IMG/VR virus record: IMGVR_UViG_2529292909_000013 | Location: 1 to 21,728 of that record | Reading direction: 5' to 3' (one strand) | DNA length: 21,728 bases | From: a virus | Lineage: Duplodnaviria > Heunggongvirae > Uroviricota > Caudoviricetes | Shown here: piece by piece, positions 2,841 through 21,728 of the stretch | How positions within the stretch are numbered: position 1 is the first letter of the stretch | Layout of the letters: each line of letters opens with the position of its first letter | Made by a program: the position numbers and the translations under genes | Notes under the pieces: model-generated | What the model was told of the DNA's origin: nothing | Databases searched by the model: none | What the model saw: the letters and a program-made list of their open reading frames with translations, nothing else

Positions 2841-3602
2841 ATGGAGACTGTTTTTGACGCACTGAAAGCGATGGGAAAAGCCACGTCGGTAGAGCTGGCT
2901 GCGCGACTTGATATCAGTCGTGAAGAAGTGCTGAACGAACTATGGGAACTGAAAAAGGCTGGTTTCGTTGATAAAAGCGCGTACACCTGGCGTGTGGCTG
3001 ATAACAACGTTCAGCAGGAACAGCCAGCGCAGGCAGAACTGCCGGAAGAAACCACCACAGCAACAGTAGCGAAAATCTCAGAGTGCGATTTAACCGCAAC
3101 GATTGAACAACGCGGATCACAAACGGCGGATGAACTGGCTACGTTTTTCGGCATCACATCACGCAAAGTGGCTTCAAAGCTGGCAATGGCAATCAGTAAA
3201 GGTCGTCTGATTCGCGTTAATCAGGACGGTAAATTTCGTTACTGCATACCGGGCGCTGATTTACCGGCAGAGCCGGAAGCTGCATCCGTAGCGGAAACGG
3301 ATGGTAAAGCCTTTCCTCAGCCAGCAGGTGCTGCGTTACCAGTCCGGGACGCAGCAACACAGGAAGAAATTAAAACAGAAACTGTGGCGGACATTGTGCA
3401 GCCGTTGCCATCGTTTACCGAAACGCAAGCAGATGAGCTGATTTTTCCGTCCCTTCGCAGGGCAAACCTGGCGCTGCGCAGGGCGAAAAGTGATGTTCAG
3501 AAGTGGGAGCGAGTCTGCGCCGCGCTGCGGGAGCTGAACAAGCACCGGGATATTGTTCGACAGATTACTGATTCTTCCCGCCGTGTTGTATCGGAAAAGT
3601 GA
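2841..3602 (+). CDS. Hypothetical prophage protein with two winged-helix-like segments
   Basis: 253-aa ORF with GGGAGG RBS upstream; two HTH-like stretches ([20 protein letters not shown] and [20 protein letters not shown]) separated by an acidic/proline linker. Confidence 0.5.
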
Positions 3603-5479: not shown

Positions 5480-5690
5480 AAACGGTTTGCGGGAAAAGGA
5501 GAGTTAAGTAGAATTGCAGCGGGTGCTTGAGGCTATCTGTCTCAGGCATGAACACCAAAAGGCAGATAGAGAAAAGCCCCAGTTAACATTACGCGTCCGG
5601 CAAGACGCTTAACATTAATCTGAGGCCATATCTATGCTCTACACACGTAGGTTAGCCTCTTACGTGCCGAAAGGCAAGGAGAAGCAGGCT

Positions 5691-5846
5691 ATGAAGCAGC
5701 AAAAGGCGATGCTAATCGCCCTGATCGTCATCTGTTTAACCGTCATAGTGACGGCACTGGTAACGAGGAAAGACCTCTGCGAGGTACGAATCCGAACCGG
5801 CCAGACGGAGGTCGCTGTCTTCACAGCTTACGAACCTGAGGAGTAA
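5691..5846 (+). CDS. hokD: Hok/Gef-family type I toxin (HokD/RelF-like)
   Basis: 51-aa product MKQQKAMLIALIVICLTVIVTALVTRKDLCEVRIRTGQTEVAVFTAYEPEE matches Hok-family membrane toxins as I recall them; AAGGAG RBS at 5676..5681; in-frame upstream ATG at 5634 could be the mok-like start. Confidence 0.85.
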   Translation: MKQQKAMLIALIVICLTVIVTALVTRKDLCEVRIRTGQTEVAVFTAYEPEE

Positions 5847-7628: not shown

Positions 7629-7994
7629 ATGACTGAACGCATAGAATTTGTTTTGCCTTACCCGCCAACGGTGAACACTTACTGGCGACGTCGTGGCAGC
7701 ACATATTTTGTATCAAAAGTCGGTGAGCGTTATCGCCGTGATGTGGCGCTTATTGTTCGCCAGCAGCAACTGAAATTAAACCTGTCCGGAAGGCCGGCAA
7801 TAGAAATTATTGCAGAGCCACCGGATAAGCGCCGTCGTGACCTGGACAATATCCTGAAGGCACCACTGGATGCACTGACGCATGCGGGGCTGCTCATAGA
7901 CGACGAGCAGTTTGATGAAATTAATATTGTGCGCGGTCAGCTTGTTCCTGGTGGGCGGTTGGGGATAAAAATCACAGAACTGGAGTACGCATGA
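7629..7994 (+). CDS. rusA: RusA Holliday-junction resolvase
   Basis: 121-aa product with the RusA hallmark pattern (LPYPPTVNTYWRRRG, DKRRRDLDNILKAPLDALTHAGLLIDD, GGRLGIKITE). Confidence 0.85.
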   Translation: MTERIEFVLPYPPTVNTYWRRRGSTYFVSKVGERYRRDVALIVRQQQLKLNLSGRPAIEIIAEPPDKRRRDLDNILKAPLDALTHAGLLIDDEQFDEINIVRGQLVPGGRLGIKITELEYA

Positions 7995-8680
7995 ATAACC
8001 AGTATTTACAGTTTGTTCGTGAGCAGCTCATTATCGCCACCGCCGATTTGAGTGGGGCAACAAAAGGTCAGCTTGAAGCCTGGCAGGAGAATGCCATGTT
8101 TGATACAGGGCGTTACAGACGTAAAAAAATCCGGTACCGCGATAAGGTCACTGGAAAAATGGTAACGCTGGATAATCCACCGATCCCGGGAAAGCAATCG
8201 CTGGCGAAAGGTTCATCAATTGCCCTAGTCAGTCCGGTTGAGTTTTCGACATCATCATGGCGACGCGCCGTTCTGTCTCTTGAAGAGCATCAGAAGGCGT
8301 GGGTACTGTGGGTATACAGTGAAAATCCGAGTTGGGATTATCAGGTGGTCATTGCGAAATGGGCGTGGGATAAGTTTCAGGTGCATTTTGGCACCAGAAA
8401 AATTACAGGGAAAACGCTTGAGCGTCTGAAGAAATTAATCTGGCTGGCGGCGCAGGATGTCAGGGGGAGGATTACTGGGTGTGACGTCTACCAGCGACAG
8501 GAACTTGCCAGACTGTGTGGAGTTAAGTCAGACAACTGGAGCCACAATTATGCGCACTACTGGCGTGATATGTGCGACATTTTTAAGAACCTCGACAACG
8601 AATCTTTGATTTATACCATGAAAACAAGATCGCAACAAAAAGCGACCTTTTCGCGGCGGGTTATTGCAAAAGTCAATTAA
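7991..8680 (+). CDS. Late-gene antiterminator Q-like protein
   Basis: ATGA start/stop overlap with rusA; 229 aa; canonical Q position directly after the nin/rusA genes and before the late region. Family assignment rests on position and size, not on a recognised motif. Confidence 0.5.
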   Translation: MNNQYLQFVREQLIIATADLSGATKGQLEAWQENAMFDTGRYRRKKIRYRDKVTGKMVTLDNPPIPGKQSLAKGSSIALVSPVEFSTSSWRRAVLSLEEHQKAWVLWVYSENPSWDYQVVIAKWAWDKFQVHFGTRKITGKTLERLKKLIWLAAQDVRGRITGCDVYQRQELARLCGVKSDNWSHNYAHYWRDMCDIFKNLDNESLIYTMKTRSQQKATFSRRVIAKVN

Positions 8681-8952
8681 ATCGCGTACATTTCGTGTAA
8701 ATCTGATATTTTGCTGATTTTGTACACGATGGCAAACTAAACAAAGCCTGCTGCTGAGCGGGCTATCTTTTGTCGTAAGTTGAGCGAAAGACCATCGATT
8801 TTACCTTGCTAAAACTATTCTGCTATTGCCGAGTTACCCTTTAGGTAATACACTCATCTTATAAAAGAAAGTGGTTGTTAGCCACATAGGTTAGGATGTG
8901 CGCATACTTTGTTTGTGTGCTTTTTGTGTTTTATCTGTTAACGGAGGGGAGC

Positions 8953-9180
8953 ATGCCGAAATATCTAACACTTGCCGCTCGCGCGATCCTCTCACCTGAG
9001 AAGATCATCAAAAAAATTGCAGATATAGCTTCCATGTGTGATGGAAAAGAAGCTAAGCATGAAAGTGACAAGTTTTTCATTGATAGTAATGGTTCGATGG
9101 TTTTGAATCGCAACAACGCTGATGTGCAAAAGGCTTTCGCAGCCAATATTAAGGGATTGAGTACTAAGAAGAAGGGTTAG
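8953..9180 (+). CDS. Small lysine-rich soluble protein, first gene of an A+T-rich two-gene cassette (unknown family)
   Basis: ATG 8953 with strong GGAGGGG RBS; 75 aa; no hydrophobic segment; region is A+T-rich by eye compared with flanking phage genes. Confidence 0.5.
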   Translation: MPKYLTLAARAILSPEKIIKKIADIASMCDGKEAKHESDKFFIDSNGSMVLNRNNADVQKAFAANIKGLSTKKKG

Positions 9181-9186
9181 TCTTCT

Positions 9187-9984
9187 ATGTGGGCTGCGCT
9201 GATTGTTATTGTTTTAGTTTGTGGTTATCACTATACCAACTGCCATTTGCCGTCACGATACCGTCAAAGCAAAGCGATCGGTTGGAATGCATACTTTGAT
9301 GTTGCACTGAAAGGTGGTGAGTTTCTCATAAGTGGTATTCTTATCGCTGCCTTATTGGTTGTTGTTCTGTACGCTGGAATGTCACTTTGGAACATTCCAG
9401 CGTACTTGTTTGGTTGGTACGCTCCCTTTACTTTCGCCCATGACTTTCTCAAAATGCGAGTGTTTGGGTTGAGCATGTTCCCTGCTATGTCGATAGCTTT
9501 CACTATTATTGTAAGTATCGGGAAGGCATCAGAGGCAACCAAAAACCATAAAGACCCACAAAAGCGCAAGGCTATTTTTGAAGAAATTGCGGCTCATAGT
9601 GCCGTGGAAAATATCCTTCTTGAATCAGTTGAGCGTGGATTGTTATTGTTGGTTACACTGAAGTCTCGCAAGGTCTATGTGGGGATGATTGATGAGGCAC
9701 GTTTCAATCAGTTAGATACTAACACATTGGTGCTAATCCCTTTTATGTCCGGGTACAGAGATAAAGATACTCTGACTTTTTGTGTTGAGCATAATTATGT
9801 GGACTACTACCTTAGTCAGGGTATCACATTAACTTCTGAGCCATTGTCAGTTTATCAGTTTAGGCATGTGTTGCCCTTCGATCAGATCGAATCTTTTTCG
9901 CTGTTTAATGTTGAAACATTCGAGACTTTCAAGGCAGGTATTGAAGGGAAGAAGGCCACTGAAGTACAGAATCAAACAAGTTAA
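9187..9984 (+). CDS. Multi-pass membrane protein with about 150-aa C-terminal soluble domain (unknown family)
   Basis: Starts 6 nt after the upstream stop; 265 aa; hydrophobic segments at roughly residues 2-14, 45-75 and 92-112, then a charged soluble domain; followed by an intrinsic terminator. Confidence 0.55.
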   Translation: MWAALIVIVLVCGYHYTNCHLPSRYRQSKAIGWNAYFDVALKGGEFLISGILIAALLVVVLYAGMSLWNIPAYLFGWYAPFTFAHDFLKMRVFGLSMFPAMSIAFTIIVSIGKASEATKNHKDPQKRKAIFEEIAAHSAVENILLESVERGLLLLVTLKSRKVYVGMIDEARFNQLDTNTLVLIPFMSGYRDKDTLTFCVEHNYVDYYLSQGITLTSEPLSVYQFRHVLPFDQIESFSLFNVETFETFKAGIEGKKATEVQNQTS

Positions 9985-10003
9985 GGTTGTTACCTCATTA
10001 ATT

Positions 10004-10030
10004 AAACCCGCCATTGAGCGGGTTTTTTGA
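10004..10030 (+). terminator. Intrinsic terminator after the two-gene cassette
   Basis: aaacccgc-cattgag-gcgggtttttt hairpin plus T-tract. Confidence 0.6.
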
Positions 10031-10146
10031 TGCCCGAAGTGCGGTACATTAAACGCGCTGGTAGTTATTAATATCGGTCTTTCAGCTTGCTGGCTTTTTC
10101 GACAAGAGTTATTGGTATGTCACGTTAACCAGAAAAGGGAAAAGGC

Positions 10147-10344
10147 ATGCTAAAACAGCAGGATATGACCGAAACTGCCAGAGTGGTGTTTAATGAATTA
10201 AGCGTCACCGAACCGGCGACCGTCGGGGAAATTGCGCAGAATACTTACCTTTCACGCGAACGTTGCCAGTTAATACTGACCCAGCTTGTTATGGCGGGTC
10301 TGGCAGATTATCAGTTCGGTTGTTACAGACGCCTTCCTCAGTGA
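10147..10344 (+). CDS. Hypothetical small winged-helix-like protein
   Basis: 65-aa ORF with AG-rich region before the ATG; HTH-like stretch PATVGEIAQNTYLSRERCQLILTQL. Confidence 0.35.
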   Translation: MLKQQDMTETARVVFNELSVTEPATVGEIAQNTYLSRERCQLILTQLVMAGLADYQFGCYRRLPQ

Positions 10345-10494
10345 AGGCTTTTTTATTTGTGGTAATGGGCGGCTGGTGGGTGTTAGCGGCACCTGCCAGC
10401 CATCTGCTCATGCGTTGGGGTCACAAGCAAACCTCAGGCCCATCTGCTTTGCGCAAAAGCGGTATGAGCCTATCAGAGAAGTGCTTATTGATCT

Positions 10495-11544
10495 ATGGCT
10501 AATACTGTAAAAATATCCAGTTGTGAGTTAATCAACGCTGATTGCCTGGAATTTATCCAGACCTTACCGGAAAACTCTGTCGATCTTATAGTCACAGACC
10601 CGCCATACTTTAAAGTGAAACCCGAGGGCTGGGATAACCAGTGGAAGGGCGACGATGATTACCTGAAGTGGCTGGACCAGTGTCTGGCGCAGTTCTGGCG
10701 GGTGCTGAAACCTGTCGGAAGTCTTTACCTGTTCTGTGGTCATCGCCTGGCATCTGATATCGAAATCATGATGCGTGAACGCTTCAGTGTGCTGAACCAT
10801 ATTATCTGGGCGAAGCCGTCCGGACGCTGGAACGGATGCAACAAGGAAAGCCTGCGGGCGTATTTCCCCGCCACAGAGCGCATTCTGTTCGCGGAACATT
10901 ATCAGGGGCCGTATCGTCCGAAAGATGCCGGGTATGCGGCGAAGGGCAGTGCACTGAAACAGCATGTGATGGCCCCGCTGATTTCTTACTTTCGTGATGC
11001 GCGCGCGGCCCTGGGGATAACGGCAAAACAGATTGCAGATGCCACAGGAAAGAAAAACATGGTGTCGCACTGGTTCAGTGCCAGTCAGTGGCAGCTACCG
11101 AACGAAAGCGATTATCTGAAATTACAGTCGCTGTTTGCCCGGGTGGCAGAAGAGAAACATCAGCGCGGTGAACTGGAAAAGCCCCACCACCAGCTGGTGG
11201 ATACGTATACGTCACTGAACCGGCAGTATGTGGAGCTGCAGAGTGAATATAAGCATCTGCGGCGGTATTTTGGTGTGACGGCGCAGGTGCCGTACACGGA
11301 TGTGTGGACACATAAACCGGTGCAGTTCTATCCCGGGAAACATCCGTGCGAAAAACCGGCAGAAATGCTGCAGCAGATAATCAGCGCAAGTAGCCGTCCT
11401 GGTGATCTGGTTGCGGATTTTTTCATGGGGTCGGGTTCAACGGTAAAAGCGGCGATGGCACTGGGGCGTCGTGCGATTGGTGTTGAGCTGGAGACCGGAC
11501 GTTTTGAGCAGACAGTCAGGGAAGTTCAGGATTTAATCGTTTGA
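10495..11544 (+). CDS. DNA methyltransferase (beta-class amino-methyltransferase, N6-adenine or N4-cytosine)
   Basis: 349 aa with the catalytic motif DPPY (IVTDPPYF) near the N-terminus and an FxGxG-type AdoMet motif (FFMGSGST) near the C-terminus. No adjacent restriction endonuclease gene. Confidence 0.8.
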   Translation: MANTVKISSCELINADCLEFIQTLPENSVDLIVTDPPYFKVKPEGWDNQWKGDDDYLKWLDQCLAQFWRVLKPVGSLYLFCGHRLASDIEIMMRERFSVLNHIIWAKPSGRWNGCNKESLRAYFPATERILFAEHYQGPYRPKDAGYAAKGSALKQHVMAPLISYFRDARAALGITAKQIADATGKKNMVSHWFSASQWQLPNESDYLKLQSLFARVAEEKHQRGELEKPHHQLVDTYTSLNRQYVELQSEYKHLRRYFGVTAQVPYTDVWTHKPVQFYPGKHPCEKPAEMLQQIISASSRPGDLVADFFMGSGSTVKAAMALGRRAIGVELETGRFEQTVREVQDLIV

Positions 11545-11593
11545 AACGGATGAGATTGCAGAATTAATTACGCACCATTATTATTCTGCTCCC

Positions 11594-11669
11594 GGCCCTT
11601 TAGCTCAGTGGTGAGAGCGAGCGACTCATAATCGCCAGGTCGCTGGTTCAAATCCAGCAAGGGCCACCA
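11594..11669 (+). tRNA. ileZ: tRNA with CAT anticodon (Ile2/Met type)
   Basis: Cloverleaf folded by hand: acceptor GGCCCTT/AAGGGCC, anticodon loop cTCATaa, T-loop TTCAAAT, 3' CCA encoded. Symbol follows Stx-phage naming. Confidence 0.75.
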
Positions 11670-11676
11670 TCACATA

Positions 11677-11753
11677 CCGCCATTAGCTCATCAGGAAAGA
11701 GCGCCAGCCTTCGAAGCTGGTTGCGCGGAGTTCGGGTCCCCGAAGGCGGTCCA
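11677..11753 (+). tRNA. argN: tRNA-Arg (TCG anticodon), slightly non-canonical
   Basis: Anticodon stem CCAGC/GCTGG with loop cTTCGaa; T-loop TTCGGGT; one mismatch each in acceptor and T stems; CCA encoded. Confidence 0.55.
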
Positions 11754-11766
11754 TTATCTGTATCCT

Positions 11767-11843
11767 GCGTTGTTAGCTCAGCCGGACAGAGCAATTGCCT
11801 TCTAAGCAATCGGTCACTGGTTCGAATCCAGTACAACGCGCCA
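11767..11843 (+). tRNA. argO: tRNA-Arg (TCT anticodon)
   Basis: Acceptor GCGTTGT/ACAACGC, anticodon loop cTTCTaa, T-loop TTCGAAT, CCA encoded. Confidence 0.8.
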
Positions 11844-11855
11844 CACTTATTTTCC

Positions 11856-11882
11856 CTGGCTCGCTTTTGCGGGCTTTTTTTT
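11856..11882 (+). terminator. Putative intrinsic terminator after the tRNA cluster
   Basis: gctcgc-tttt-gcgggc hairpin (one G-U pair) followed by TTTTTTTT. Confidence 0.45.
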
Positions 11883-11887
11883 AAATG

Positions 11888-12105
11888 TCTCACAATTCAG
11901 GCGGTTGACTGTTGTCTGGTTTGCGGGGAGTTTGTTAAAAGAAACTGGCATGGTGAATCCCCCTGTGCGGAGGGGCAATCAGCGAGTAGGTATATGGGAT
12001 AATCGCGGATTCAGGTGCTGGTACTGAATTCACCGGGAGGCACCCGGCACCATGCAATGGCACATAGCGCCACTCTCCAGCCCCTCTCCGGAGGGGCTTT
12101 TCTGT
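11888..12105 (+). repeat. Copy A of a tandemly duplicated module of about 220-235 bp (TTGAC hexamer, two hairpins, intrinsic terminator)
   Basis: Shares with copy B, in the same order: CTCACAATTCAG, TTGAC(T/A), hairpin CCCCCTG(T/A)GCGGAGGGG, hairpin CACCGGGAGGCACCCGGCACCATG, terminator CCCCTCTCCGGAGGGG + T-run. Confidence 0.6.
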
Positions 12106-12355
12106 GCCGGATACATCACAGTTTCTGGAACCTTAGGTACTACAGTATCAGTCAGGGTGCTATATTTTCAGATGTGATGAAAGCCTGTCAGCAGGCAGGG
12201 CGTATCGGAAATGACCCAGTAGAGAAAACGTTGACTCAGATACCGGTGCTGAGTTACCGGGAAACCGGCATCACATGACCGCTATCCTTCCAGGCCCATC
12301 CGCTCCGGTGGGCCTTTTTACTGCAGAAAACAGGTTCCCCGTTAAATGCTATGTT

Positions 12356-12590
12356 GCTCACAATTCAGTAAGTTGACAGTTGCCTGTCAGACTGGGCATT
12401 TGTTAAAAAAATTTCGCATGGTGAATCCCCCTGAGCGGAGGGGCGACTGGTGACGGTATAATCTCTGATTATCAAAACGAGAATGACGCGGGTTTAGTGG
12501 CACCGGGCTGAACTCACCGGGAGGCACCCGGCACCATGTGCATGATGATACAGATACGCGGCTTTAGCCCCTCTCCGGAGGGGTTTTCTT
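12356..12590 (+). repeat. Copy B of the same module
   Basis: See copy A. A further intrinsic terminator (ggcccatccgctccggtgggcc + T-run, about 12293..12320) lies between the copies. Confidence 0.6.
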
Positions 12591-12818
12591 GTGGGCAAAA
12601 AAAGCCCGCGCTGGGAGACGCGGGCGGCAAGGAATAAACAATAAAACGTGAAGTAATATTTCAGCTGGCGAATAATATCCGACAGTAATCACTCTGCGCA
12701 ATAGCGCGGCCTTTTTCGTATTGCGGGCTGTTGTCTCTCTTCTGCCATTGTCCTGTAACTTCCGGACTTCAGCCCGCTCCTCATTTTACTCACAATATTA
12801 TCCCGGCCGGGAGGATTC

Positions 12819-14195
12819 ATGGCATTTAAACACTATGATGTTGTCAGGGCGGCGTCGCCGTCAGATCTTGCGGAAAAGCTGACACATAAACTGAAAGAGG
12901 GCTGGCAGCCGTTTGGTAGTCCGGTGGCCATAACCCCTTATACCCTGATGCAGGCGATTGCAGCAGAAGGTGATGTGGTCGTCAGTGGTGCAACTGAGCC
13001 GGAGTGGTACTACGTCATCGTACTGGCCGGGCAGTCCAATGCCATGGCTTACGGTGAAGGGCTTCCGCTTCCGGATTCATACGATGCGCCCCATCCGCGC
13101 ATTAAGCAACTGGCCCGTCGTAACACAGTGACTCCCGGTGGTGAAGTATGCGTATTTAACGACATCATTCCTGCTGACCATTGTCTGCATGATGTTCAGG
13201 ATATGAGTACGATTAACCATCCCCGGGCTGACCTGAGCAAAGGGCAGTACGGCTGTGTCGGACAGGGCTTACATATTGCCAAAAAACTGCTTCCGTATAT
13301 CCCTAATAATGCGGGGATCCTGCTGGTACCATGCTGTCGTGGTGGTTCGGCATTCACCCAGGGCGCGGAGGGGACATTCAGTGCGGACACGGGGGCCAGC
13401 CAGGATTCGGCACGCTGGGGTGTGGGTAAACCGTTATATCAGGATCTGCTTTTCCGCACGAAGGCAGCATTGCAGAAAAACCCGAAAAACGTTTTGCTGG
13501 CGATATGCTGGATGCAGGGGGAATTCGATATGACGAATGCCAGTTACGCCCAGCAGCCAGCAGCATTTCTTGCAATGGTACAGCAGTTCCGTGCTGACCT
13601 TGCCGGGCTGGCGGCGCAGTGCCATGGCGGCAGTGCTGCAGTTGTACCGTGGATTTGTGGCGACACGACGTATTACTGGAAAAACACATACGGCACACAG
13701 TATGACTCCGTCTACGGCGCGTACAAAAACAGGGAGAGCGACAACGTTTTCTTTGTGCCGTTCATGACCGACGGTAACGGCAACAACACGCCCACCAACT
13801 TACCGGCAGAAGACCCGGATATTGCTGATGCAGGTTATTACGGCGCGCAATCCCGTAGTAATGGTAATTGGGTATCGTCAAATCGTCCGACACATTTCAG
13901 TTCATGGGCGCGCAGGGGCATTATTTCGGATCGCCTGGCAACCGCTATTCTGAACGCAGTTGGTCGAACCAGCGCCTTCATCAGCGGTACCGCACCGGAG
14001 ATTAAACCCTCGCCCGGCGGCGACACGCCATCGGGGCCGTCTGATGGTGACACATCCGTTCGTACAGTCTCCCTGCTGCCGACAGCCGGAGAGGCTGCTG
14101 CGCAGGGCTGGACCATCACCGGCGGCAGTGTTGCGCTGGAAGATGGTGTGTTTAAGGTTACCGCGTTAACGGAGCGCGGCGTTGTCCCCTCATAG
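12819..14195 (+). CDS. Prophage NanS-p-like esterase (sialate O-acetylesterase family)
   Basis: 458-aa ORF with GGGAGG RBS; resembles the nanS-p/yjhS-like gene found downstream of the tRNA/stx region in Stx-type lambdoid phages; contains the VIVLAGQSNAMAYGE segment and a Gly/Ser/Asp-rich C-terminal tail. Confidence 0.6.
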   Translation: MAFKHYDVVRAASPSDLAEKLTHKLKEGWQPFGSPVAITPYTLMQAIAAEGDVVVSGATEPEWYYVIVLAGQSNAMAYGEGLPLPDSYDAPHPRIKQLARRNTVTPGGEVCVFNDIIPADHCLHDVQDMSTINHPRADLSKGQYGCVGQGLHIAKKLLPYIPNNAGILLVPCCRGGSAFTQGAEGTFSADTGASQDSARWGVGKPLYQDLLFRTKAALQKNPKNVLLAICWMQGEFDMTNASYAQQPAAFLAMVQQFRADLAGLAAQCHGGSAAVVPWICGDTTYYWKNTYGTQYDSVYGAYKNRESDNVFFVPFMTDGNGNNTPTNLPAEDPDIADAGYYGAQSRSNGNWVSSNRPTHFSSWARRGIISDRLATAILNAVGRTSAFISGTAPEIKPSPGGDTPSGPSDGDTSVRTVSLLPTAGEAAAQGWTITGGSVALEDGVFKVTALTERGVVPS

Positions 14196-14658
14196 TCGCC
14201 TGTCCGGTGCGATGGTGGAAGAAGCCGGATGTTTATCACTATTAATTGATGACACAGAAATGGATTCATTGAATTTCAGCACGTTTTTGTATTCGTGTTA
14301 TTGAACATCTGTTTATTTACTTTTAACATATTGATAATAAAAAGAGCTGTAAATCTTTAGATGAGTCGATTTTGTCCGGGGAAGTTCAAATGGATTTTAT
14401 GCTGACGGTTTCTGGTGTGGTTATCCTGTCCATTGCTTATACTGCAGATAAATATGGCTGCCATTTGTTATCACGTATTGGCGCTTATTGTTCGTTGATG
14501 CTGATTTTCTCGTCGCTTTTTTGAGTAAGTTATATTAATTATAACAAATAATTTTCTGTGTTATTTTCAGGCTATCCCGTCAGAGGGGAAGCCTGTACTG
14601 CCAGGGAGCGAATGGAAAACTGATGTGTCCGGTAACTGCGTGTTCTGTGAACACCATG

Positions 14659-14844
14659 TTACTTAATTATGTAATTCATACCCGAACTCTCTGTTGACAG
14701 CCTTCTTCTGCAGGCTTCAATAACCCACGCTGAAAAGTTTCCTGAACCTTTCAGATCAAGAGCGATGTTAATTTGTTCAATCATCTGGTTTGGAAATCGG
14801 ATGTTGCGGGTTGTTGTTCTGCGCGTTCTGTTCTTTGATGACAT
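14659..14844 (-). CDS. Small ribbon-helix-helix-like protein (DUF3950/YlcI-like)
   Basis: 61-aa minus-strand ORF; strand-helix-helix pattern RNIRFPNQMIEQINIALDL...FSAWVIEACRRRL typical of RHH DNA-binding proteins; sits just upstream of cos/Nu1. Confidence 0.45.
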   Translation of the reverse strand: MSSKNRTRRTTTRNIRFPNQMIEQINIALDLKGSGNFSAWVIEACRRRLSTESSGMNYIIK

Positions 14845-15019
14845 AATGTTTCCCCATATTCAGTGTTGCTGATTTGTATTATCAGAAGTTGCTTTTACGT
14901 TAATTTGACGCAGATCAATTAATACGATACCTGCGTCATAATTGATTATTTCTCGTGGTTTGATGGCGTACACACATGTTGTGATAAACCTTATATAGAT
15001 GATAATCATTATCATTTCG

Positions 15020-15230
15020 TGGGTCCTTTCCGGCGATCCGACCGGTTACGGGGCGGCGACCTCGCGGTTTTTCACTATTTATGAAAATTTTTCAGGGAAA
15101 ATCGTGTCGGTACTTCTCGAATATAACTTTTTGTTTTTTTTAATATTGCATCCGTAAAGGTCCGACATGAAAGTGTCCGAAAATGCCTTTTTCTGGCGTT
15201 TTCATGTCGGGCCTTGTATTTGATAATGGG
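15020..15230 (+). other. Lambda-like cos site (cosQ-cosN-cosB)
   Basis: GGGCGGCGACCTCGCGGTTTTTCACTATTTATGAAAATTTT at 15051.. is near-identical to the lambda left end (12-nt cohesive end GGGCGGCGACCT). The preceding GGGTCCTTTCCGGCGATCCGACCGGTTACG matches the lambda right end. Inverted repeats GTCCGACATGAAA / TTTCATGTCGGG (about 15165..15215) look like cosB R-sites. Confidence 0.75.
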
Positions 15231-15238
15231 TTGTTTTC

Positions 15239-15787
15239 ATGAAGGTTAATAAAAAGAGGCTTGCCGAAATTTTCAACGTGGACCCGCGGACGATTGAACG
15301 CTGGCAGTCTCAGGGACTCCCTTGCGCCTCCAAAGGTAGTAAGGGCATTGAATCTGTATTTGATACTGCCATGGTAATTCAGTGGTATGCGCAGAGGGAA
15401 ACTGATATCGAAAACGAAAAGCTCCGCAAAGAACTGGACGATTTGCGTGCGGCAGCGGAGTCAGATTTACAACCCGGCACCATTGACTATGAACGCTACC
15501 GGCTCACAAAAGCGCAGGCAGATGCGCAGGAACTGAAAAATGCCCGTGAAGACGGAGTAGTGCTGGAAACTGAACTGTTTACCTTCATTCTGCAACGTGT
15601 GGCACAGGAGATTTCGGGGATACTTGTGCGTGTGCCGTTGACATTACAGCGTAAATATCCGGACATTTCACCATCACACCTTGATGTGGTGAAAACTGAA
15701 ATCGCGAAAGCCTCCAATGTTTCAGCTAAGGCCGGTGAAAACGTGGGCGGGTGGATCGATGATTTCAGACGCGCAGAAGGCAGCTAA
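15239..15787 (+). CDS. Terminase small subunit Nu1
   Basis: 182-aa product closely similar to lambda Nu1 ([62 protein letters not shown]). Confidence 0.9.
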
Positions 15788-16967
15788 TGCAGCCGGTGCG
15801 ATAGCAACAGGGCTTTTATCTCTCATTATTCCTGTTCCACTGACGACAGTTCAGTGGGCCAATAAACATTATTACCTTCCTAAAGAGTCGTCTTATACCC
15901 CGGGGCGGTGGGAAACACTGCCGTTTCAGGTTGGCATCATGAACTGTATGGGCAACGATTTGATTCGCACTGTTAACCTGATTAAATCTGCCCGTGTTGG
16001 TTATACAAAGATGTTGCTGGGAGTGGAGGCTTATTTTATTGAGCATAAATCACGCAACAGCCTTCTTTTTCAGCCCACGGACTCAGCTGCTGAAGATTTT
16101 ATGAAATCTCATGTTGAGCCAACGATAAGGGAGGTTCCTGCGTTGCTGGAGCTGGCTCCATGGTTCGGAAGAAAACACCGCGATAATACGCTCACCCTGA
16201 AGCGTTTTTCCTCCGGTGTGGGTTTCTGGTGTCTGGGGGGAGCGGCAGCAAAAAACTACCGTGAAAAATCCGTGGATGTGGTCTGTTATGACGAGCTTTC
16301 CTCGTTCGAACCGGATGTTGAAAAAGAGGGTTCGCCAACCCTGCTGGGGGATAAACGTATTGAGGGCTCTGTATGGCCCAAATCCATTCGCGGCTCGACG
16401 CCTAAAATCAAAGGCTCCTGCCAGATCGAAAAAGCCGCTAACGAGTCGGCACACTTCATGCGTTTTTATGTGCCCTGTCCGCACTGTGGGGAGGAGCAGT
16501 ATCTGAAATTTGGCGATGAGTCCACGCCTTTTGGGCTTAAATGGGAGAAGGACAGCCCCGAAAGCGTTTTCTACCTCTGTGAGCATCATGGCTGCGTGAT
16601 CCATCAGTCTGAACTGGACCAGAGTAACGGGCGGTGGATCTGTGAAAACACGGGCATGTGGACCCGTGACGGTCTGACGTTTTTCAGCGCTGCGGGTAAT
16701 GAAATTCCGCCGCCGCGCTCCATCACTTTCCATATCTGGACGGCGTACAGTCCGTTCACCACCTGGGTACAGATTGTCTATGACTGGCTGGATGCACTGA
16801 AAGATCCCAACGGCCTGAAAACCTTTGTGAACACCACGCTGGGCGAGACCTGGGAAGAGGCTGTGGGCGAAAAACTCGATCACCAGGTACTGATGGATAA
16901 GGTTGTGCGTTACACGGCGGCGGTGCCTGCCCGGGTGCCCTCGTGGACTCGTCGCCTGACGCACTGA
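15759..16967 (+). pseudogene. Terminase large subunit (gpA) N-terminal fragment, truncated after about 400 codons
   Basis: From ATG 15759 the product tracks lambda gpA (ANKHYYLPKESSY..GRWETLPFQ, CPHCGEEQYLKFGD, TTLGETWEEAVGEK) up to about ...YTAAVPARV, then diverges and stops at 16967; lambda gpA is about 641 aa. Confidence 0.85.
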
Positions 16968-18235
16968 ATACGCTGAACGAGCTGGCTGCGGCGTTGGGCA
17001 ACGACCCGAATTTTGCGACCACCATGACTAACGCGCTTGCGGGTAAGCAACCGAAAGATGCCACCCTGACGGCGCTGGCCGGGCTTGCTACTGCGGCAGA
17101 CAAGTTTCCGTATTTTACGGGGAATGATGTTGCCAGTCTGGCAACCCTGACAAAAGTTGGGCGGGATATTCTTGCGAAATCGACCGTTGCCGCCGTTATC
17201 GAATACCTCGGTTTACAGGAAACGGTAAACAAGGCTGGTAACGCCGTTCAGCGTTCCGGCGATAAAATGACCGGAGAACTGAAAATTGGCACGGTGAATG
17301 CGCTGCGAATTTTCAATGATGCCTTCGGTCTTATTTTCCGTCGTTCAGAAGATTTTCTTCATTTCATTCCGACGGCTGAAGGACAAGGCGAAAACGGTGA
17401 TATCGGCCCATTAAGGCCATTCGCTATAAATCTGAGAACAGGTGCTATATCTGTCAGCCACGGGGCCAAAATTGATGGTGGGCTGGCGCTTGGTACAGAT
17501 AACGCACTGGGCGGTAATTCCATTACTCTCGGAGATAACGACACTGGTATTAAACAGGGCGGCGACGGTGTCCTTTTATTCTATTCAAATGGACAACTGG
17601 CATTTGGGCTTCAACCCGCATCTGCTGATTTTTATAAGCGGGTTGCATATATTCATCAGGGAATAATTCCTGATGGAAGTGGCGCATTTGCAGACCAGTT
17701 GAATAATGCCACCGCGCCTTTTGTTCAGACGCAGTTTGCCTGGAATCCCACTCCTGGTGGTCATTACGTGCCGATAGTTAAGGGCTTGTCCATTCGCAAT
17801 GGACAGGGCTATCCCGGCGCGGTCAGCTTTGGGTATTTACTGACAGAACAGTATGGATTTCCGGTTCCATGTATTCATATGCGTGGCGATGGCGGTAATG
17901 ATGCTTTATGGCAGTTTAACCCGAACCATAAATCCTTTATTTCACCGGGTGCTCTTATTGCGGGTGGCGTCCGTTATAACACCGATGGAAATATATTTGG
18001 TGGGTGCTGGGGGTCAAACTTAAATGATTACCTGAATAGTTCTTTTATCAGAAATGTGCGTCTGGGAGGCAGACGTTCTGACACATTATATCGCGGAGGA
18101 CTTTGCGAACCAGGTAATGGTCATGTGACAACAGGATTGCAAATTATTGGTGAGGTTGATGGAGATGACTGGATGGTGTCACGACCACTACAAAAATACA
18201 TTTCTGGTAACTGGTATAACGTTGAACAGGCATAG
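16943..18235 (+). CDS. stf: Side tail fibre protein, 3' portion (constant-region end plus variable segment Sv); 5' part missing
   Basis: Contains the conserved DALNTLNELAAALGNDPNFATTMTNALAGKQPKDATLTALAGL...AAVIEYLGL block of lambdoid Stf proteins and a C-terminal receptor-binding-like domain. No upstream shaft/N-terminal region; begins at the junction with truncated gpA. Confidence 0.75.
   Translation: MDSSPDALNTLNELAAALGNDPNFATTMTNALAGKQPKDATLTALAGLATAADKFPYFTGNDVASLATLTKVGRDILAKSTVAAVIEYLGLQETVNKAGNAVQRSGDKMTGELKIGTVNALRIFNDAFGLIFRRSEDFLHFIPTAEGQGENGDIGPLRPFAINLRTGAISVSHGAKIDGGLALGTDNALGGNSITLGDNDTGIKQGGDGVLLFYSNGQLAFGLQPASADFYKRVAYIHQGIIPDGSGAFADQLNNATAPFVQTQFAWNPTPGGHYVPIVKGLSIRNGQGYPGAVSFGYLLTEQYGFPVPCIHMRGDGGNDALWQFNPNHKSFISPGALIAGGVRYNTDGNIFGGCWGSNLNDYLNSSFIRNVRLGGRRSDTLYRGGLCEPGNGHVTTGLQIIGEVDGDDWMVSRPLQKYISGNWYNVEQA
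17196..17221 (+). other. Left crossover site (ix/gix-like) for Pin/Gin-family DNA invertase
   Basis: TTATCGAATACCTCGGTTTACAGGAA is 22/26 identical to the reverse complement of the site at 20275..20300 and resembles Mu gix. Lies in the EYLGL codons at the constant/variable junction of stf. Confidence 0.65.
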
Positions 18236-18250
18236 CCATCAGGAGAATAT

Positions 18251-18778
18251 ATGCAACATCTGAAAAATATTACCGCCGGAAACCCCAAAACCATTGAGCA
18301 GTATCAGCTTACGAAAAAAGCTGGCGTTATCTGGCTATATACAGAAGACGGTAAAAACTGGTATGACGAATTAAAAAACTTTCAGGATGATACTTTAAAA
18401 ATAGCTTATGACCAGAAGGGGATTATTCGTTGTATTGAGAAAGACGTATCAATGCTTAACCCTGACGGGTTAAGTGTTGTTGAGTTACCGAATATAACAG
18501 CCAACCGTCGCGCCGATATCTCGGGAAACTGGAAGTTTCTGGATGGTAAAGTAGTAAAGCGGGAATATACAAAACAGGAACTGCAACAGCAGGCAGAGTT
18601 ACAAAAAGCCGCTTTGCTTTCCGAAGCGGAGTCTGTGATTCAACCGCTGGAACGTGCTGTCAGACTGAATATGGCAACTGATGAGGAACGCACACGACTG
18701 GAATCATGGGAACGCTACAGCGTTATGGTCAGCCGTGTGGATACTGCAAAGCCTGAATGGCCACAGAAACCAGAATAA
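18251..18778 (+). CDS. tfa: Tail fibre assembly protein (Tfa)
   Basis: 175 aa; typical Tfa N-terminus ([28 protein letters not shown]) and C-terminus ([12 protein letters not shown]...RVDT...PEWP). Confidence 0.85.
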
Positions 18779-18787
18779 CAACAAATT

Positions 18788-18810
18788 AAGGCCCGTACGG
18801 GCCTTTTCTT
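18788..18810. terminator. Intrinsic terminator between the convergent tfa genes
   Basis: aggcccgtacgggcct hairpin followed by TTTTCTT; could serve both strands. Confidence 0.5.
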
Positions 18811-18911
18811 ATTCTGGTGGTTCCGGGAATGTTACAGGAAGAACCGAGGTATCAGTTGTCTCAACCTGTTGCACGTATCGCATCCAGTTCATCAGTTGCT
18901 GTCTGTCTGAA

Positions 18912-19340
18912 TCAGTGATAATCCCCAAAGTAAGCTGTGTTTGCCAGAACTGCGTTTTTCTCTGGCCTGCTGTAATAATATTTTTTCTGGTTTTCCGTCT
19001 GTAGGCGCAACTCTTCTTCGGTATATACACGTTTAATGACTGCGCCATCTTTAAACATCCATTTACCTGAGTCGTCAGCACGCCGGTTGGCGGTAATATC
19101 AGGAATCTCAACGACGCTATAACCTTCAGGGTTAAGTGTGGAGGCATCTTTGGTTATGGCAACAATAATATTATTTTCATCGTAAACAATCTTTATGGTG
19201 TCTGGCTGAAATTTTTTCACTTCCTCATACCAGTTTTTTCCGTCCTCAGAGTAAAGCCAGATAACTCCGTGTTTCTTTGTTAACTCATACTGTTCCAGTG
19301 TTTTAGCATTACCCGCTTTTATGTTCTTTAAGTGCATCAT
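18912..19340 (-). CDS. tfa: Alternative tail fibre assembly protein (Tfa') in inverted orientation
   Basis: 142 aa on the minus strand; N-terminus parallel to Tfa ([28 protein letters not shown]); start lies 2 nt downstream of the stf' stop on the minus strand. Confidence 0.8.
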
Positions 19341-19341
19341 A

Positions 19342-20292
19342 TTAAACGCTCGCTACATTATACCAGGTGCCATTTATATACTTTTGAACGGGTCTGTAAT
19401 AAACGCCCGCTATATTATCGGCAGAGTTAGACCCTGTATCCTGAACATTAATACCAGACAATACATGACCTGAAGGGCACTGGAAATTCCATGTTTGCCA
19501 GTTGTTCACTCCATAATATTGCTGTGAACCAAGTCGAACATCTTTCACATAACGGGAATCAAAGTTACCGTAATCCGAGGGGTTAACACGCCCTGTAATA
19601 TTTATGGTTTTATTACTTTGAATGCTTCCGGAGACAAAGCGCATAACATGGACGTTATTAGCATAAACATCCAGATTACCATCGCCATTTTGTTTAAAGC
19701 CCGTGTCATTATCACCCAATACAATCGAATTACCGCCAAGAGCACTGGATGTTCCGATACCCAGTGCACCATTCAGTTGACCACCAGATAACGGCAGTGC
19801 ACCAACATCTCCTGCTGAAGGTTTTCTGGTGGTGGTGTAAAATTCGGACCAGTCGGCTTCAAAACCATAACCATCACGGGCTGAACGATAAAAAATACCG
19901 CCATTTTTATAATTAATCCGAAACTGAACTGCAGGACAACTTCCTTCTCCCATATAAAAATGAATAATTAACGTTGATGCACCACTAATAGTTGCGTTAT
20001 AGGCTCCGCTACTCCAGTTCCATCCAACTGCTTTATCATTCGCAACGGTGCTTCCTGTTTTCCCTAAGGCAAACGCACCAACATGACTTGCTTTTAATGT
20101 GATATCGGAGGAACCATCAAAAGCCACATTGCTTATTTTCCTGGCAGTTTTTAATTTTGCAGCTGTAGAAGCATTGCCGGATAGTTCACCAGAAAGGCCA
20201 CCGCTGAATGTTTGTCGATTAGTCCAGGTATTCGCTGTACTGAGTAACGGTATTTTCTCCCCGCTTGTGCCGAGTTCTCGTAAACCGAGGTT
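19342..20292 (-). CDS. stf: Alternative tail fibre variable segment (Sv'), promoterless/startless, inside the invertible segment
   Basis: Minus-strand frame is open from 20292 (translated by hand: [32 protein letters not shown]...), beginning exactly in the LGL codons at the right crossover site; would be fused to the constant stf region after inversion. Confidence 0.7.
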
Positions 20293-20300
20293 TTAGATAA
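20275..20300 (+). other. Right crossover site (ix/gix-like)
   Basis: TTCTCGTAAACCGAGGTTTTAGATAA closely resembles the Mu gix site and lies just upstream of the pin reading frame. Confidence 0.65.
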
Positions 20301-20354
20301 TGGCGGTTTCTGGCCTGCATGGCATGATTTGTGCTTTTGGACGGGAGATTCAGC

Positions 20355-20537
20355 GTGCTGATTGGCTATGTAAGGGTATCAACAAATGACCAGAATACAG
20401 ATCTGCAACGAAACGCTCTTGTTTGTGCAGGATATGAACAAATATTTGAAGATAAATTAAGCGGAACAAGGACAGGCCGACCTGGATTAAAACGTGCTTT
20501 AAAGCGCCTTCAAAAAGGTGACGCACTGGTTGTCTGA
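20355..20537 (+). pseudogene. pin: Pin/Gin-family serine DNA invertase, N-terminal 60 codons followed by decayed frame
   Basis: GTG start; (M)LIGYVRVSTNDQNTDLQRNAL...LKRALKRLQKGD matches the Pin N-terminus including the catalytic-Ser region; stops at 20535..20537 where Pin has Trp. Downstream reading still resembles Pin (K-L-D...L...HL) but with further stops, then ends at a tfa fragment. Confidence 0.8.
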
Positions 20538-20600
20538 AAACTGGACTGACTGGTTCACTGTATGCGGCATCTTGTCGTGCTGGTGGTGGAAGCCTAGAAA

Positions 20601-20681
20601 AAGTATCGGGTGTTACTGAACCGTGTTGATACATCAACTGCACCTGATATTGAGTGGCCTACGAACCCTGTCAGGGAGTAA
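20601..20681 (+). pseudogene. Tail fibre assembly gene 3' fragment (duplicate of 21648..21728)
   Basis: Encodes ...[23 protein letters not shown]-stop, nearly identical at DNA level to the 3' end of the tfa fragment at the window end. Confidence 0.6.
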
Positions 20682-20707
20682 TCATTGGGATTATGCCGCA
20701 GCACGTC

Positions 20708-21319
20708 TTAAGCAAGAACGTGCTGCGGTTGGATGCTATTTTTCCCTGAAGCGGAAAACATTACTACAGTACCTTGAACCTTGGTTTTAACATTCTCGAA
20801 ATGCTCTGAGAGTATATGTGTTAAGCCTTCTTCGGAATCTTTTGTGTTTGAAAAGATGCCTTTCTGATTGTAAATGCGCATCAGTTTTTGACCGAAGCTA
20901 TTGTGCACAACTCCATCGCCAAGAATTGTGGCTCCGTATAGAGTTCCATCGTCAGTTAAGGCCTGCGCCGCATTGCGTATTACACAGCTTTTTGTAGATA
21001 TATTTCCAGGCAGGCAGTGAAGAAGGTAAAACATGGAAATGGAATCAAATTGACCATGTAACGCCGCGGGATAAGGTTCAAAAACATCATGGCTAATTTT
21101 ATGTTTAATTTTTGATTCCCCAGCCCTTGTAGATGCCGCGTTCAGGCTAGCTTCGTTCAAATCCATTAAAGATATCAGACTACTCTCAGGTACGTGAGTA
21201 AGGTAAAACCCAGTTCCAACACCAATATCCAGATGGTTGTTACCTACATGTTCCAGAAAGTGTGGAAGAAGGTGTTCCTTTGTAGGACATCCCCATGCAA
21301 GCCGATTTGATACTCCCAA
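20708..21319 (-). CDS. Class I SAM-dependent methyltransferase (YbcY-like), probably 5'-truncated
   Basis: 203 aa with the AdoMet-binding glycine motif LDIGVGTGFY; no ATG at the N-terminus (frame is open upstream to a stop at about 21362 with only TTG/CTT candidates), suggesting a remnant like ybcY of DLP12. Confidence 0.6.
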   Translation of the reverse strand: MGVSNRLAWGCPTKEHLLPHFLEHVGNNHLDIGVGTGFYLTHVPESSLISLMDLNEASLNAASTRAGESKIKHKISHDVFEPYPAALHGQFDSISMFYLLHCLPGNISTKSCVIRNAAQALTDDGTLYGATILGDGVVHNSFGQKLMRIYNQKGIFSNTKDSEEGLTHILSEHFENVKTKVQGTVVMFSASGKNSIQPQHVLA

Positions 21320-21458
21320 AACCCACCAGTCATAAAGCTTTAGGGTAAGTGGTGTGTAAATTTTAGCCCCATCATCTGTGTTTTTTTCATTGATTTCACC
21401 ATGTTATAGTTTTATTTGTGAATTAAATCAATTATGGCGATGAATTACAAGGGGTTAA

Positions 21459-21728
21459 ATGCTGCCGCAGCATAGCGATATTGAAATAGCCTGGTATGCT
21501 TCGATACAGCAAGAGCCGAATGGCTGGAAGACCGTCACCACACAGTTCTACATCCAGGAATTCAGTGAGTATATTGCGCCACTGCAGGATGCTGTAGATC
21601 TGGAAATCGCAACGGAGGAAGAAAGATCGTTGCTGGAGGCATGGAATAAATATCGGGTATTGTTGAATCGTGTTGATACATCAACTGTACCTGATATTGA
21701 GTGGCCTGCAAATCCTGTCAGGGAGTAA
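21459..21728 (+). CDS. Tail fibre assembly protein C-terminal fragment (TfaX-like)
   Basis: 89-aa ORF ending at the window edge; C-terminus [36 protein letters not shown] parallels the Tfa C-termini at 18251..18778 and the fragment at 20601..20681. Confidence 0.65.

Follow-up and report, generated by a model that had tools for sequence, protein, structure and literature searches.

A toxin-free relative of the Stx-phage late module carries four small RNA genes between its tRNA cassette and nanS-p

Results

Four small RNA genes fill the interval upstream of nanS-p

The sequence examined here, referred to throughout as the window, is a stretch of 21,728 nucleotides (nt) from a Caudoviricetes virus (IMG/VR record IMGVR_UViG_2529292909_000013, positions 1 to 21,728). 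Within it, a cassette of three transfer RNA (tRNA) genes is separated from a nanS-p-like esterase gene by an interval of 975 base-pairs (bp; 11844..12818). An initial annotation, made from the letters alone, had found only repeats and terminators in this interval and had described it as a vacant slot for Shiga toxin (Stx) genes. Instead, the interval holds four small RNA (sRNA) genes: two members of the STnc100 family with a diverged relative between them, here called element X, all on the plus strand, and one convergent gene on the minus strand. The term 'vacant' is therefore not appropriate, particularly as STnc100 is also located downstream of stxB in Stx phages. RefSeq annotation over the interval consists of a pseudo 'hypothetical protein' fragment, or is absent.

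Searches with the Rfam model for STnc100 (RF02076, gathering score 47 bits) returned two full-length, plus-strand matches at 11919-12109 (136.3 bits) and 12387-12596 (161 bits), which place both elements in the family. The corresponding genes, copy 1 (11948..12104) and copy 2 (12416..12592), score 111.6 and 112.5 bits, respectively, with our own covariance model R1 (described below). The repeats of the initial annotation (its families D1 and D3) and two of its terminators are parts of these genes. Copy 1 is 100% identical over positions 11963-12100 to the STnc100 gene of prophage PP6 from E2348/69, a strain of enteropathogenic E. coli (EPEC), and its minimum free energy (MFE) fold (z = -2.4) comprises the helices P1-P2-P3-P4-P5 followed by a linker and a terminator. 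Copy 2 is the positional counterpart of the EcOnc27/STnc100 gene of Stx2 phage 933W, with which the window is collinear over 12358-12926.

Each copy is preceded by a lead sequence (direct repeat D1, CTCACAATTCAG..GTTGAC in copy 1) that contains a putative extended -10 promoter. In the lead of copy 1 (11889..11947, plus strand), this promoter would consist of TTGTCT, an 18-nt spacer and TGtTAAAAG, and in that of copy 2 (12357..12415, plus strand) of TTGCCT, an 18-nt spacer and TGtTAAAAA. The sequence of the copy 1 lead is found 3' of stx2B in 933W, and the copy 2 lead is nearly identical to that 933W sequence. For the EPEC RNA PasD2, the 5' end estimated from RNA-seq coverage and northern band size is the G of GCAUGGUGAAUCC, which lies 7 nt past TTGACT-18-TAAAAA. 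The promoters proposed by analogy for copies 1 and 2 stand at the same distance from GCAUGG as in PasD2.

The linkers of the three plus-strand genes differ, reading AAUGGCACAUAGCGCCACUCUCC in copy 1, GACCGCUAUCCUUCC in X and GUGCAUGAUGAUACAGAUACGCGGCUUU in copy 2. Across phages, linker/terminator alleles are shuffled among 5' domains, and specificity therefore appears to evolve by module exchange. At least four linker/terminator alleles and varied P3 inserts occur among the STnc100 genes of the window (11948-12592) and of six other loci (L002, L005 and L007-L010), while P1, P2, P4 and P5 are nearly invariant across the same set. The modular make-up of these genes suggests recombination inside the RNA gene.

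The convergent gene (12597..12778, minus strand) is a positional analogue of AsxR, and its terminator (12625-12597) faces that of STnc100 copy 2 at a distance of ~5 nt. Its 5' end is the one estimated in the EPEC study by Pearl Mizrahi et al. (2021). On the minus strand, 102 of the 104 positions from 12700 to 12597 are identical to the EPEC sRNA candidate E2348C_1409.E2348C_1408.IGR, which was found bound to Hfq by RIL-seq (ligation of interacting RNAs followed by sequencing). This identity extends over the seed and the terminator, and the gene has the same orientation upstream of the esterase gene as in PP6. The candidate was related by its authors to EcOnc08/21/42 of enterohaemorrhagic E. 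coli (PMC8550237). The gene belongs to neither the AsxR nor the AgvB family (RF02703, RF02702), for which positions 11800-12900 gave no Rfam match at E<=10, whereas 933W gave AsxR at 88 bits. At the same threshold, the minus-strand element produced only weak matches at chance level (OmrA-B, anti-hemB and others). A plus-strand hairpin followed by a T-run (12694..12715), detected by a terminator scan and lying in a block that is 91% identical in 933W, is located just 5' of the nanS-p 5' untranslated region.

The tRNA terminator abuts the first STnc100 lead where 933W carries stx2AB

As stated in the initial annotation, the interval holds no open reading frame (ORF) resembling an AB5 toxin subunit. 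Stx2A and Stx2B searched against the whole window by tblastn gave a best E-value of 0.06, which is noise, and the 933W stx cassette searched by blastn gave a best E-value of 0.29. Neither stxA nor stxB is present between the tRNA terminator and the STnc100/nanS-p block, and the module is thus not of the Stx-converting type.

Alignment with 933W reveals the same gene order on both flanks, with 90% identity over 11443-11881 and 77% over 12358-12926. The blastn alignment stops at window position 11881 (position 3409 of the 933W locus, L002) and restarts either at 11886 in copy 1 (L002 position 4745) or at 12358 in copy 2 (L002 position 4749). Because 933W carries stx2AB after its tRNA terminator and before its STnc100 lead, the ~4 nt at 11882..11885 represent the true empty site, where 933W has a 1,335-bp stx2AB cassette. 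The tRNA terminator meets the STnc100 lead cleanly and no scar is evident.

The distribution of this junction was established in a set of 5,426 complete E. coli genomes. The toxin-free junction is present at 80% coverage or more in 937 of these, including non-Stx prophages of O157 and O103 strains, while the stx2-occupied junction is present in 551. The toxin-free junction is thus the commoner state, and this, with the lack of a scar, runs counter to the suggestion of the initial annotation that cargo was lost. For the whole 1.4-kb arrangement, 340 genomes give a coverage of at least 80%, and six or more match it with 100% identity. Its carriers include many strains that are not Stx-producing E. 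coli (STEC), for example ATCC 11775, S88, UM146 and NU14. ATCC 11775 has X and the empty-site junction at 100% identity and the block as a whole at 98.6%, while Res13-Lact-PEA14-20 is 100% identical throughout the block. Given that the tRNA terminator directly abuts the STnc100 lead, the region is related to the Stx-phage late module but free of toxin genes, rather than a vacated locus.

Element X shares the structural plan of STnc100

Element X (12172..12320, plus strand) is composed of a 5' domain (12172-12276), a linker and a terminator (12292-12315). A putative extended -10 promoter, TGcTATATT (12158..12166, plus strand), is located 5 nt before P1 of X and is invariant in four variants of the element. 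At a permissive threshold, the Rfam STnc100 model matches X at 12148-12321 with 30.1 bits (E=1.9e-4).

Covariance model R1 was built from the 5' domains of nine STnc100 genes, with X and PasD excluded. Besides those of the window, the genes were taken from four Stx phages, one Klebsiella phage and two toxin-free phages or prophages. With filters off, R1 matches X over the full model at 12172-12276 with 38.3 bits (E=1.1e-6), and it matches EPEC PasD2 with 36.1 bits and the X variants of three other loci with 30.6 bits. The MFE fold of X (z = -3.1) has the same architecture as that of copy 1: an 8-bp closing helix P1 encloses hairpin P2, a variable P3, an 8-bp P4 and P5, with P5 abutting the 3' strand of P1, and these are followed by a single-stranded linker and the terminator. 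Four of the eight P1 base-pairs are changed on both sides between STnc100 and X. In a family alignment fitted to the model, 95.5% of cells are paired and 12 of 26 pairs exhibit both-side changes. This extent of pairing was matched by none of 500 shuffles, and slid controls were 34-47% paired.

X is retained from its -10 element to its terminator, while the upstream flank diverges. It occurs in 673 of the 5,426 genomes (~12%) and is annotated in none of them. The STnc100-X-STnc100 triad recurs beside other neighbours, such as IraM and DUF3927. The four-helix 5' domain shared by these RNAs is kept in E. coli Stx phages and as far away as a Klebsiella phage, and is always found at the head of the late genes. 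Judged by the covariance models and predicted folds, X is a structural paralogue of STnc100/PasD and is not filed here as an STnc100 member.

The tRNA cassette matches that of Stx2 phages and includes a decaying argN

The trio of tRNA genes with CAT, TCG and TCT anticodons reported in the initial annotation was recovered by ARAGORN, which called exactly these three genes in the window at the same coordinates. All lie on the plus strand and exceed the gathering score of the Rfam tRNA model (29 bits): tRNA-Ile2 with anticodon CAU (ileZ, 11594..11669, 72.5 bits), tRNA-Arg with UCG (argN, 11677..11753, 43.4 bits) and tRNA-Arg with UCU (argO, 11767..11843, 70.1 bits). The Prokaryotic Genome Annotation Pipeline (PGAP) likewise labels them tRNA-Ile, tRNA-Arg and tRNA-Arg in L001, a RefSeq genome with 100% identity to the window across 11500-12900. 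The CAT tRNA is identical to ileZ of 933W and shares 68 of 76 positions with K-12 ileX, with compensated stem differences. An assignment as tRNA-Met was rejected in favour of tRNA-Ile2 on the basis of these similarities. The order ileZ-argN-argO and the anticodons CAU, UCG and UCU are those of the Stx-phage cassette, and the window cassette is ~90% identical to that of 933W.

The argN gene is a partly degenerate allele, in agreement with the mismatches in two stems noted initially. It carries an A/A mismatch in the acceptor stem (A6/A) and an A/C mismatch in the T-stem, both of which are paired in Stx-phage alleles. Moreover, its T-loop reads UUCGGGU, with a G at position 58 where A58 is expected, a change that is absent from the Stx-phage alleles. 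Rfam scores for argN form a gradient of decay from 933W and 12E129 (54.8-56.3 bits) through an Stx2k phage (45.5 bits) and the window to PP6 (sub-threshold). PGAP calls the identical gene in L001. In Stx2a phage 12E129 (L008 900-976), the body of argN is kept but the anticodon is TCT instead of TCG, and its cassette would thus carry two tRNA-Arg(UCU) genes.

The cassette ends at an intrinsic terminator (11858..11881, plus strand) that was identified by a terminator scan and is homologous to the annotated terminator upstream of stx in 933W. A putative promoter, pT (TTGCAG, 17-nt spacer, TATTAT; 11556..11584, plus strand), is located where the homologous 933W sequence has its annotated pT. Directly upstream is a DNA methyltransferase gene (10495..11544, plus strand; Pfam N6_N4_Mtase, E=2e-44). 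Stx2 phage 12E129 likewise has this gene ahead of its tRNAs, whereas only a 3' remnant of it is found in 933W. The cassette tRNAs decode AUA, AGA/AGG and CGA/CGG, and the codons AUA, AGA, AGG, CGA and CGG are used in window ORFs at 7.7, 4.3, 4.8, 4.5 and 8.8 per thousand, respectively. Average use of these codons in K-12 is lower.

A perfect 13-nt inverted repeat (GCGGGCTTTTTTT at 11869-11881 and AAAAAAAGCCCGC at 12597-12609) joins the terminator of the tRNA cassette with that of the minus-strand sRNA and flanks the three plus-strand sRNA genes. It may be a chance likeness between terminators.

The module resides in a lambda-like prophage remnant

The identification of a nanS-p-like esterase gene after the tRNAs was borne out by domain searches. 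The ORF at 12819..14195 (plus strand) encodes an N-terminal DUF1737 domain (Pfam, E=2.8e-16) and a SASA esterase domain (E=6.4e-13), as is characteristic of nanS-p. Its product of 458 amino acids corresponds to positions 1-461 of the 634 in PHROG 143 and is shorter than full length (~618-645 amino acids). Compared with L001, which matches window positions 10018-14162 at 98.5%, a 3.6-kb deletion beginning at ~14162 has taken away the genes for holin, lysozyme and spanin along with the 3' third of nanS-p. The sequence past this deletion (14162-15238) is AT-rich (36-41% GC) up to a lambda-type cos site, GGGCGGCGACCT, at 15051-15062, and Nu1 begins at 15239.

The terminase large-subunit gene (15717-18235) encodes the gpA ATPase domain and the start of the nuclease domain, but it stops matching other genomes at 16937, past which it continues as the C-terminal portion of a tail-fibre gene. 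This fusion means that the head and tail-shaft genes are all missing, and the prophage is therefore a remnant and not an inducible phage. The backbone outside the module is that of a lambda-like cos/Nu1/gpA prophage. When the whole window was used as a query, no complete E. coli genome covered more than 60% of it and no phage record more than 24%. The view of the initial annotation that this is an stx-free relative of Stx phages consequently holds for the late module, with its 933W gene order and flanks, but not for the rest of the window, and on these alignments the likeness to Stx phages appears to be limited to the module.

The Q antiterminator gene is located at 7991-8680 (Pfam Phage_antiter_Q). 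A terminator-like hairpin (8745-8764) starts 65 nt later, and a late transcript would meet at least eight further sites of this kind before nanS-p. Passing such sites is what Q-modified polymerase normally does. Between Q and the methylase gene, positions 8896-9984 constitute a two-ORF insert of low GC content (~40-42%), which is closed by a hairpin with A-tract, GC-stem and T-tract at ~10003-10027. One product of this insert, of 265 amino acids, has a hydrophobic N-terminal half and matches PHROG 3630 (unknown function) but no Pfam family. In PPompW-type phages, the adhesin gene paa is found at this position. PADLOC, applied to the ORFs of unknown function, detected no defence system and returned one weak SWIM match (E=0.0035).

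Several features lie farther from the module. A hok/sok-type toxin-antitoxin locus (5521-5696; Rfam sok, 117 bits) overlaps an ORF of 70 amino acids (5634-5846), and hokD is annotated there in a related genome. In the region 18251-21728, two Caudo_TAP tail-fibre-assembly genes on the plus strand (18251-18778 and 21459 to the end) enclose two minus-strand elements, one encoding a gp37_C-like tail-fibre C-terminus (19342-20127) and the other a methyltransferase (20708-21319). This layout resembles an invertible or rearranged tail-fibre segment.

Related loci share the layout with varied cargo

In 933W, the order is methylase remnant, ileZ-argN-argO, terminator, stx2A, stx2B, STnc100, AsxR (minus strand), conserved hairpin and nanS-p, with an STnc100 gene that scores 207 bits and begins 75 nt past stx2B. 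Three other Stx2 phages have this layout too. An Stx1 phage has Q, stx1AB, STnc100 and nanS-p without the tRNA cassette, and in a Klebsiella phage Q is followed by a moron, an STnc100-like RNA and the holin gene, in that order. Relative to 933W and to Sakai prophage Sp5, the window is without stx2AB and carries an extra STnc100 copy and X. It further differs from 933W in that its antisense sRNA is not AsxR, its nanS-p is truncated, its lysis genes are missing and its backbone is of the cos/Nu1/gpA type.

The sequence downstream of the Q-antiterminated PR' promoter was described as a moron site by Tree et al. (2014; PMC4104026). Sp5, where EcOnc27 and AsxR lie 3' of stx2B, and seven further Sakai prophages were reported to carry convergent genes for Hfq-bound sRNAs at this site (PMC4104026). 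STnc100 copy 2 and the minus-strand sRNA resemble these pairs in meeting terminator to terminator upstream of a conserved esterase ORF. Unlike in the Sakai pairs, three predicted genes stand in tandem on the plus-strand side here. STnc100 is overlapped by EcOnc27/sRNA103, and fimZ and espA transcripts increased when the latter was overexpressed (PMC12711010).

PasD1 and PasD2 of EPEC E2348/69 are abundant RNAs of 172-173 nt that occur in Hfq-bound RIL-seq chimeras and whose seed lies within the linker (Pearl Mizrahi et al. 2021, PMC8550237). They resemble the window RNAs in lying directly upstream of nanS-p, in their extended -10 type promoter, in the 5' start GCAUGGUGAAUCC and in the plan of 5' domain, linker and terminator. 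PasD2, like X, falls below the Rfam gathering score for STnc100. Unlike the window RNAs, PasD has no complete P5 hairpin and carries a UGUGAG seed, which is found in none of the three window linkers. The window RNAs are thus not PasD, and blastn gave only a 62-nt match of 76% identity to PasD2. PasD and STnc100 were concluded to share an ancestor and to have arrived with Stx-type phages (Zhu, Shabalina and Storz 2026, bioRxiv 10.64898/2026.05.13.724894). PasA, which in E2348/69 lies downstream of the esterase gene, was not found in the interval on inspection by eye.

Prophage PP6 of E2348/69 is like the window in its order of Q, ileZ, a decayed argN, argO and an STnc100 allele, followed by a minus-strand sRNA and esterase start that are 95% identical. 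It differs in having a single STnc100 gene, split by ISEc13, in lacking X and a second copy, and in an argN too decayed to be called. The insertion of ISEc13 (IS4-like) inside STnc100 of PP6 (L004 1600-3151) parts the promoter and the 5' strand of P1 from the rest, and the stretch beyond the insertion is the one with 100% identity to window positions 11963-12100. Elsewhere, iraM, which encodes an RpoS-stabilising anti-adaptor, lies on the minus strand between STnc100 and the esterase or holin gene (L005 1946-2281, L006 1993-2328 and L011 2621-2944), and in an Stx2k phage it is located directly after stx2B and STnc100. The slot between STnc100 and the esterase or holin gene thus takes varied cargo.

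Discussion

We consider it highly probable that the region belongs to the late operon of a lambdoid E. coli prophage, where it forms the moron zone downstream of Q, in the common toxin-free state, filled with sRNA genes and never vacated. Such a zone would be a series of independent transcription units that each possess a promoter and an intrinsic terminator: a rare-codon tRNA cassette, the tandem STnc100-1, X and STnc100-2 genes on the plus strand and one convergent sRNA gene on the minus strand. In the lysogen, the three tandem RNAs would most likely be expressed as Hfq-dependent base-pairing regulators with three target specificities, by analogy with EcOnc27 and PasD. Upon induction, Q-modified RNA polymerase, starting just past Q, would read through the terminators as far as nanS-p and the late genes. 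The stx2AB cassette of Stx2 phages separates the tRNA terminator from the first STnc100 lead, and these two elements abut here.

Several observations weigh against this interpretation or parts of it. The proposed promoters were read by eye and, being of the extended -10 type, are not listed by a consensus scan. The MFE fold of copy 2 (z = -1.0) fails to give the family consensus. X does not reach the gathering score of 47 bits and so lies outside the Rfam STnc100 family as currently defined, and the alignment used for its pair counts was fitted to the model and is hence biased toward the structure. Furthermore, the four X variants (MAFFT, 90% identity) exhibit no compensatory change, only one-sided changes and one P1 mismatch. 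PR' was not located in the window, and in the present deleted state, read-through by Q into the late genes would have no lysis or morphogenesis outcome.

A more far-reaching proposal for X is that it represents a third branch of STnc100/PasD and that STnc100-X-STnc100 is a mobile three-gene cassette, in which the 5' domain is the functional module and the linker a swappable targeting add-on. We regard this as rather unlikely. Under the same tentative proposal, the 5' domain could be, for example, a protein- or polymerase-binding element that serves the phage life cycle.

A related question is whether the STnc100-type RNAs act mainly in cis, as a late-operon leader or in processing or antitermination, with any activity in trans being secondary. 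Stx1 phages, Stx2 phages, toxin-free prophages and the Klebsiella phage indeed have an STnc100-type element just 5' of their first late gene, and conservation is much stronger in the 5' domain than in the linker, where the seed would lie. However, a promoter-like element and a strong terminator accompany every unit, and the number of units varies between one and three, or a unit is split by an insertion sequence (IS), with no obvious pattern. Moreover, PasD and EcOnc27 are bound by Hfq, as detected by RIL-seq and by cross-linking and analysis of cDNA (CRAC), respectively, with many trans partners for PasD. A mainly cis-acting role is therefore judged unlikely.

It is also improbable that the locus once carried stxAB, since deleted or replaced, and that the interval is what remained. 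Its flanks are homologous to those of Stx phages, the repeated STnc100 leads and the tRNA cassette offer homology on both sides for precise exchange by homologous recombination, and the prophage has suffered other deletions. Nevertheless, stx-related sequence is absent from the window at the protein and DNA levels, the tRNA terminator meets the STnc100 lead cleanly, and the same junction is present in 937 genomes, including many non-STEC lineages, outnumbering the 551 with an stx2-occupied junction.

We find little reason to view the interval as non-functional debris, in which decaying duplicated fragments and leftover terminators remain but no genes. In favour of this view, RefSeq annotates only a pseudogene fragment or nothing, the adjacent argN is decaying, and an IS element splits one STnc100 copy in E2348/69. 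Against this very improbable alternative stand matches of 136 and 161 bits to a curated RNA family, helices kept through both-side changes, and the conservation of X from -10 element to terminator despite a diverging upstream flank. In addition, the triad recurs with different neighbours and homologues were detected as Hfq-associated RNAs. Least probable of all is that the interval encodes small proteins, such as from the ORF at 12015-12278 (87 amino acids) or a 55-amino-acid ORF over X: although such ORFs exist mechanically and phage records annotate hypothetical proteins over the homologous stretch, the 87-amino-acid ORF begins within STnc100 copy 1 and crosses its terminator, and the region matches RNA covariance models with pairing preserved.

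Morons and convergent sRNAs downstream of Q were published by Tree et al. (2014), and this picture was extended by Zhu et al. (2026). The arrangement described here is thus already in the literature for prophages of pathogenic E. coli, and X alone may be undescribed. The initial annotation was accordingly confirmed in part in its observations and supported in part in its interpretation.

These results leave the understanding of Stx phages unchanged. They correct a tempting misreading, in that an ORF-free intergenic stretch in a prophage late region is not empty. The exact empty-site junction separates toxin-free from stx2-occupied prophages and can be used for surveillance and annotation. Finally, X is flagged as an unannotated RNA gene that is missed by current Rfam thresholds and by RefSeq annotation.

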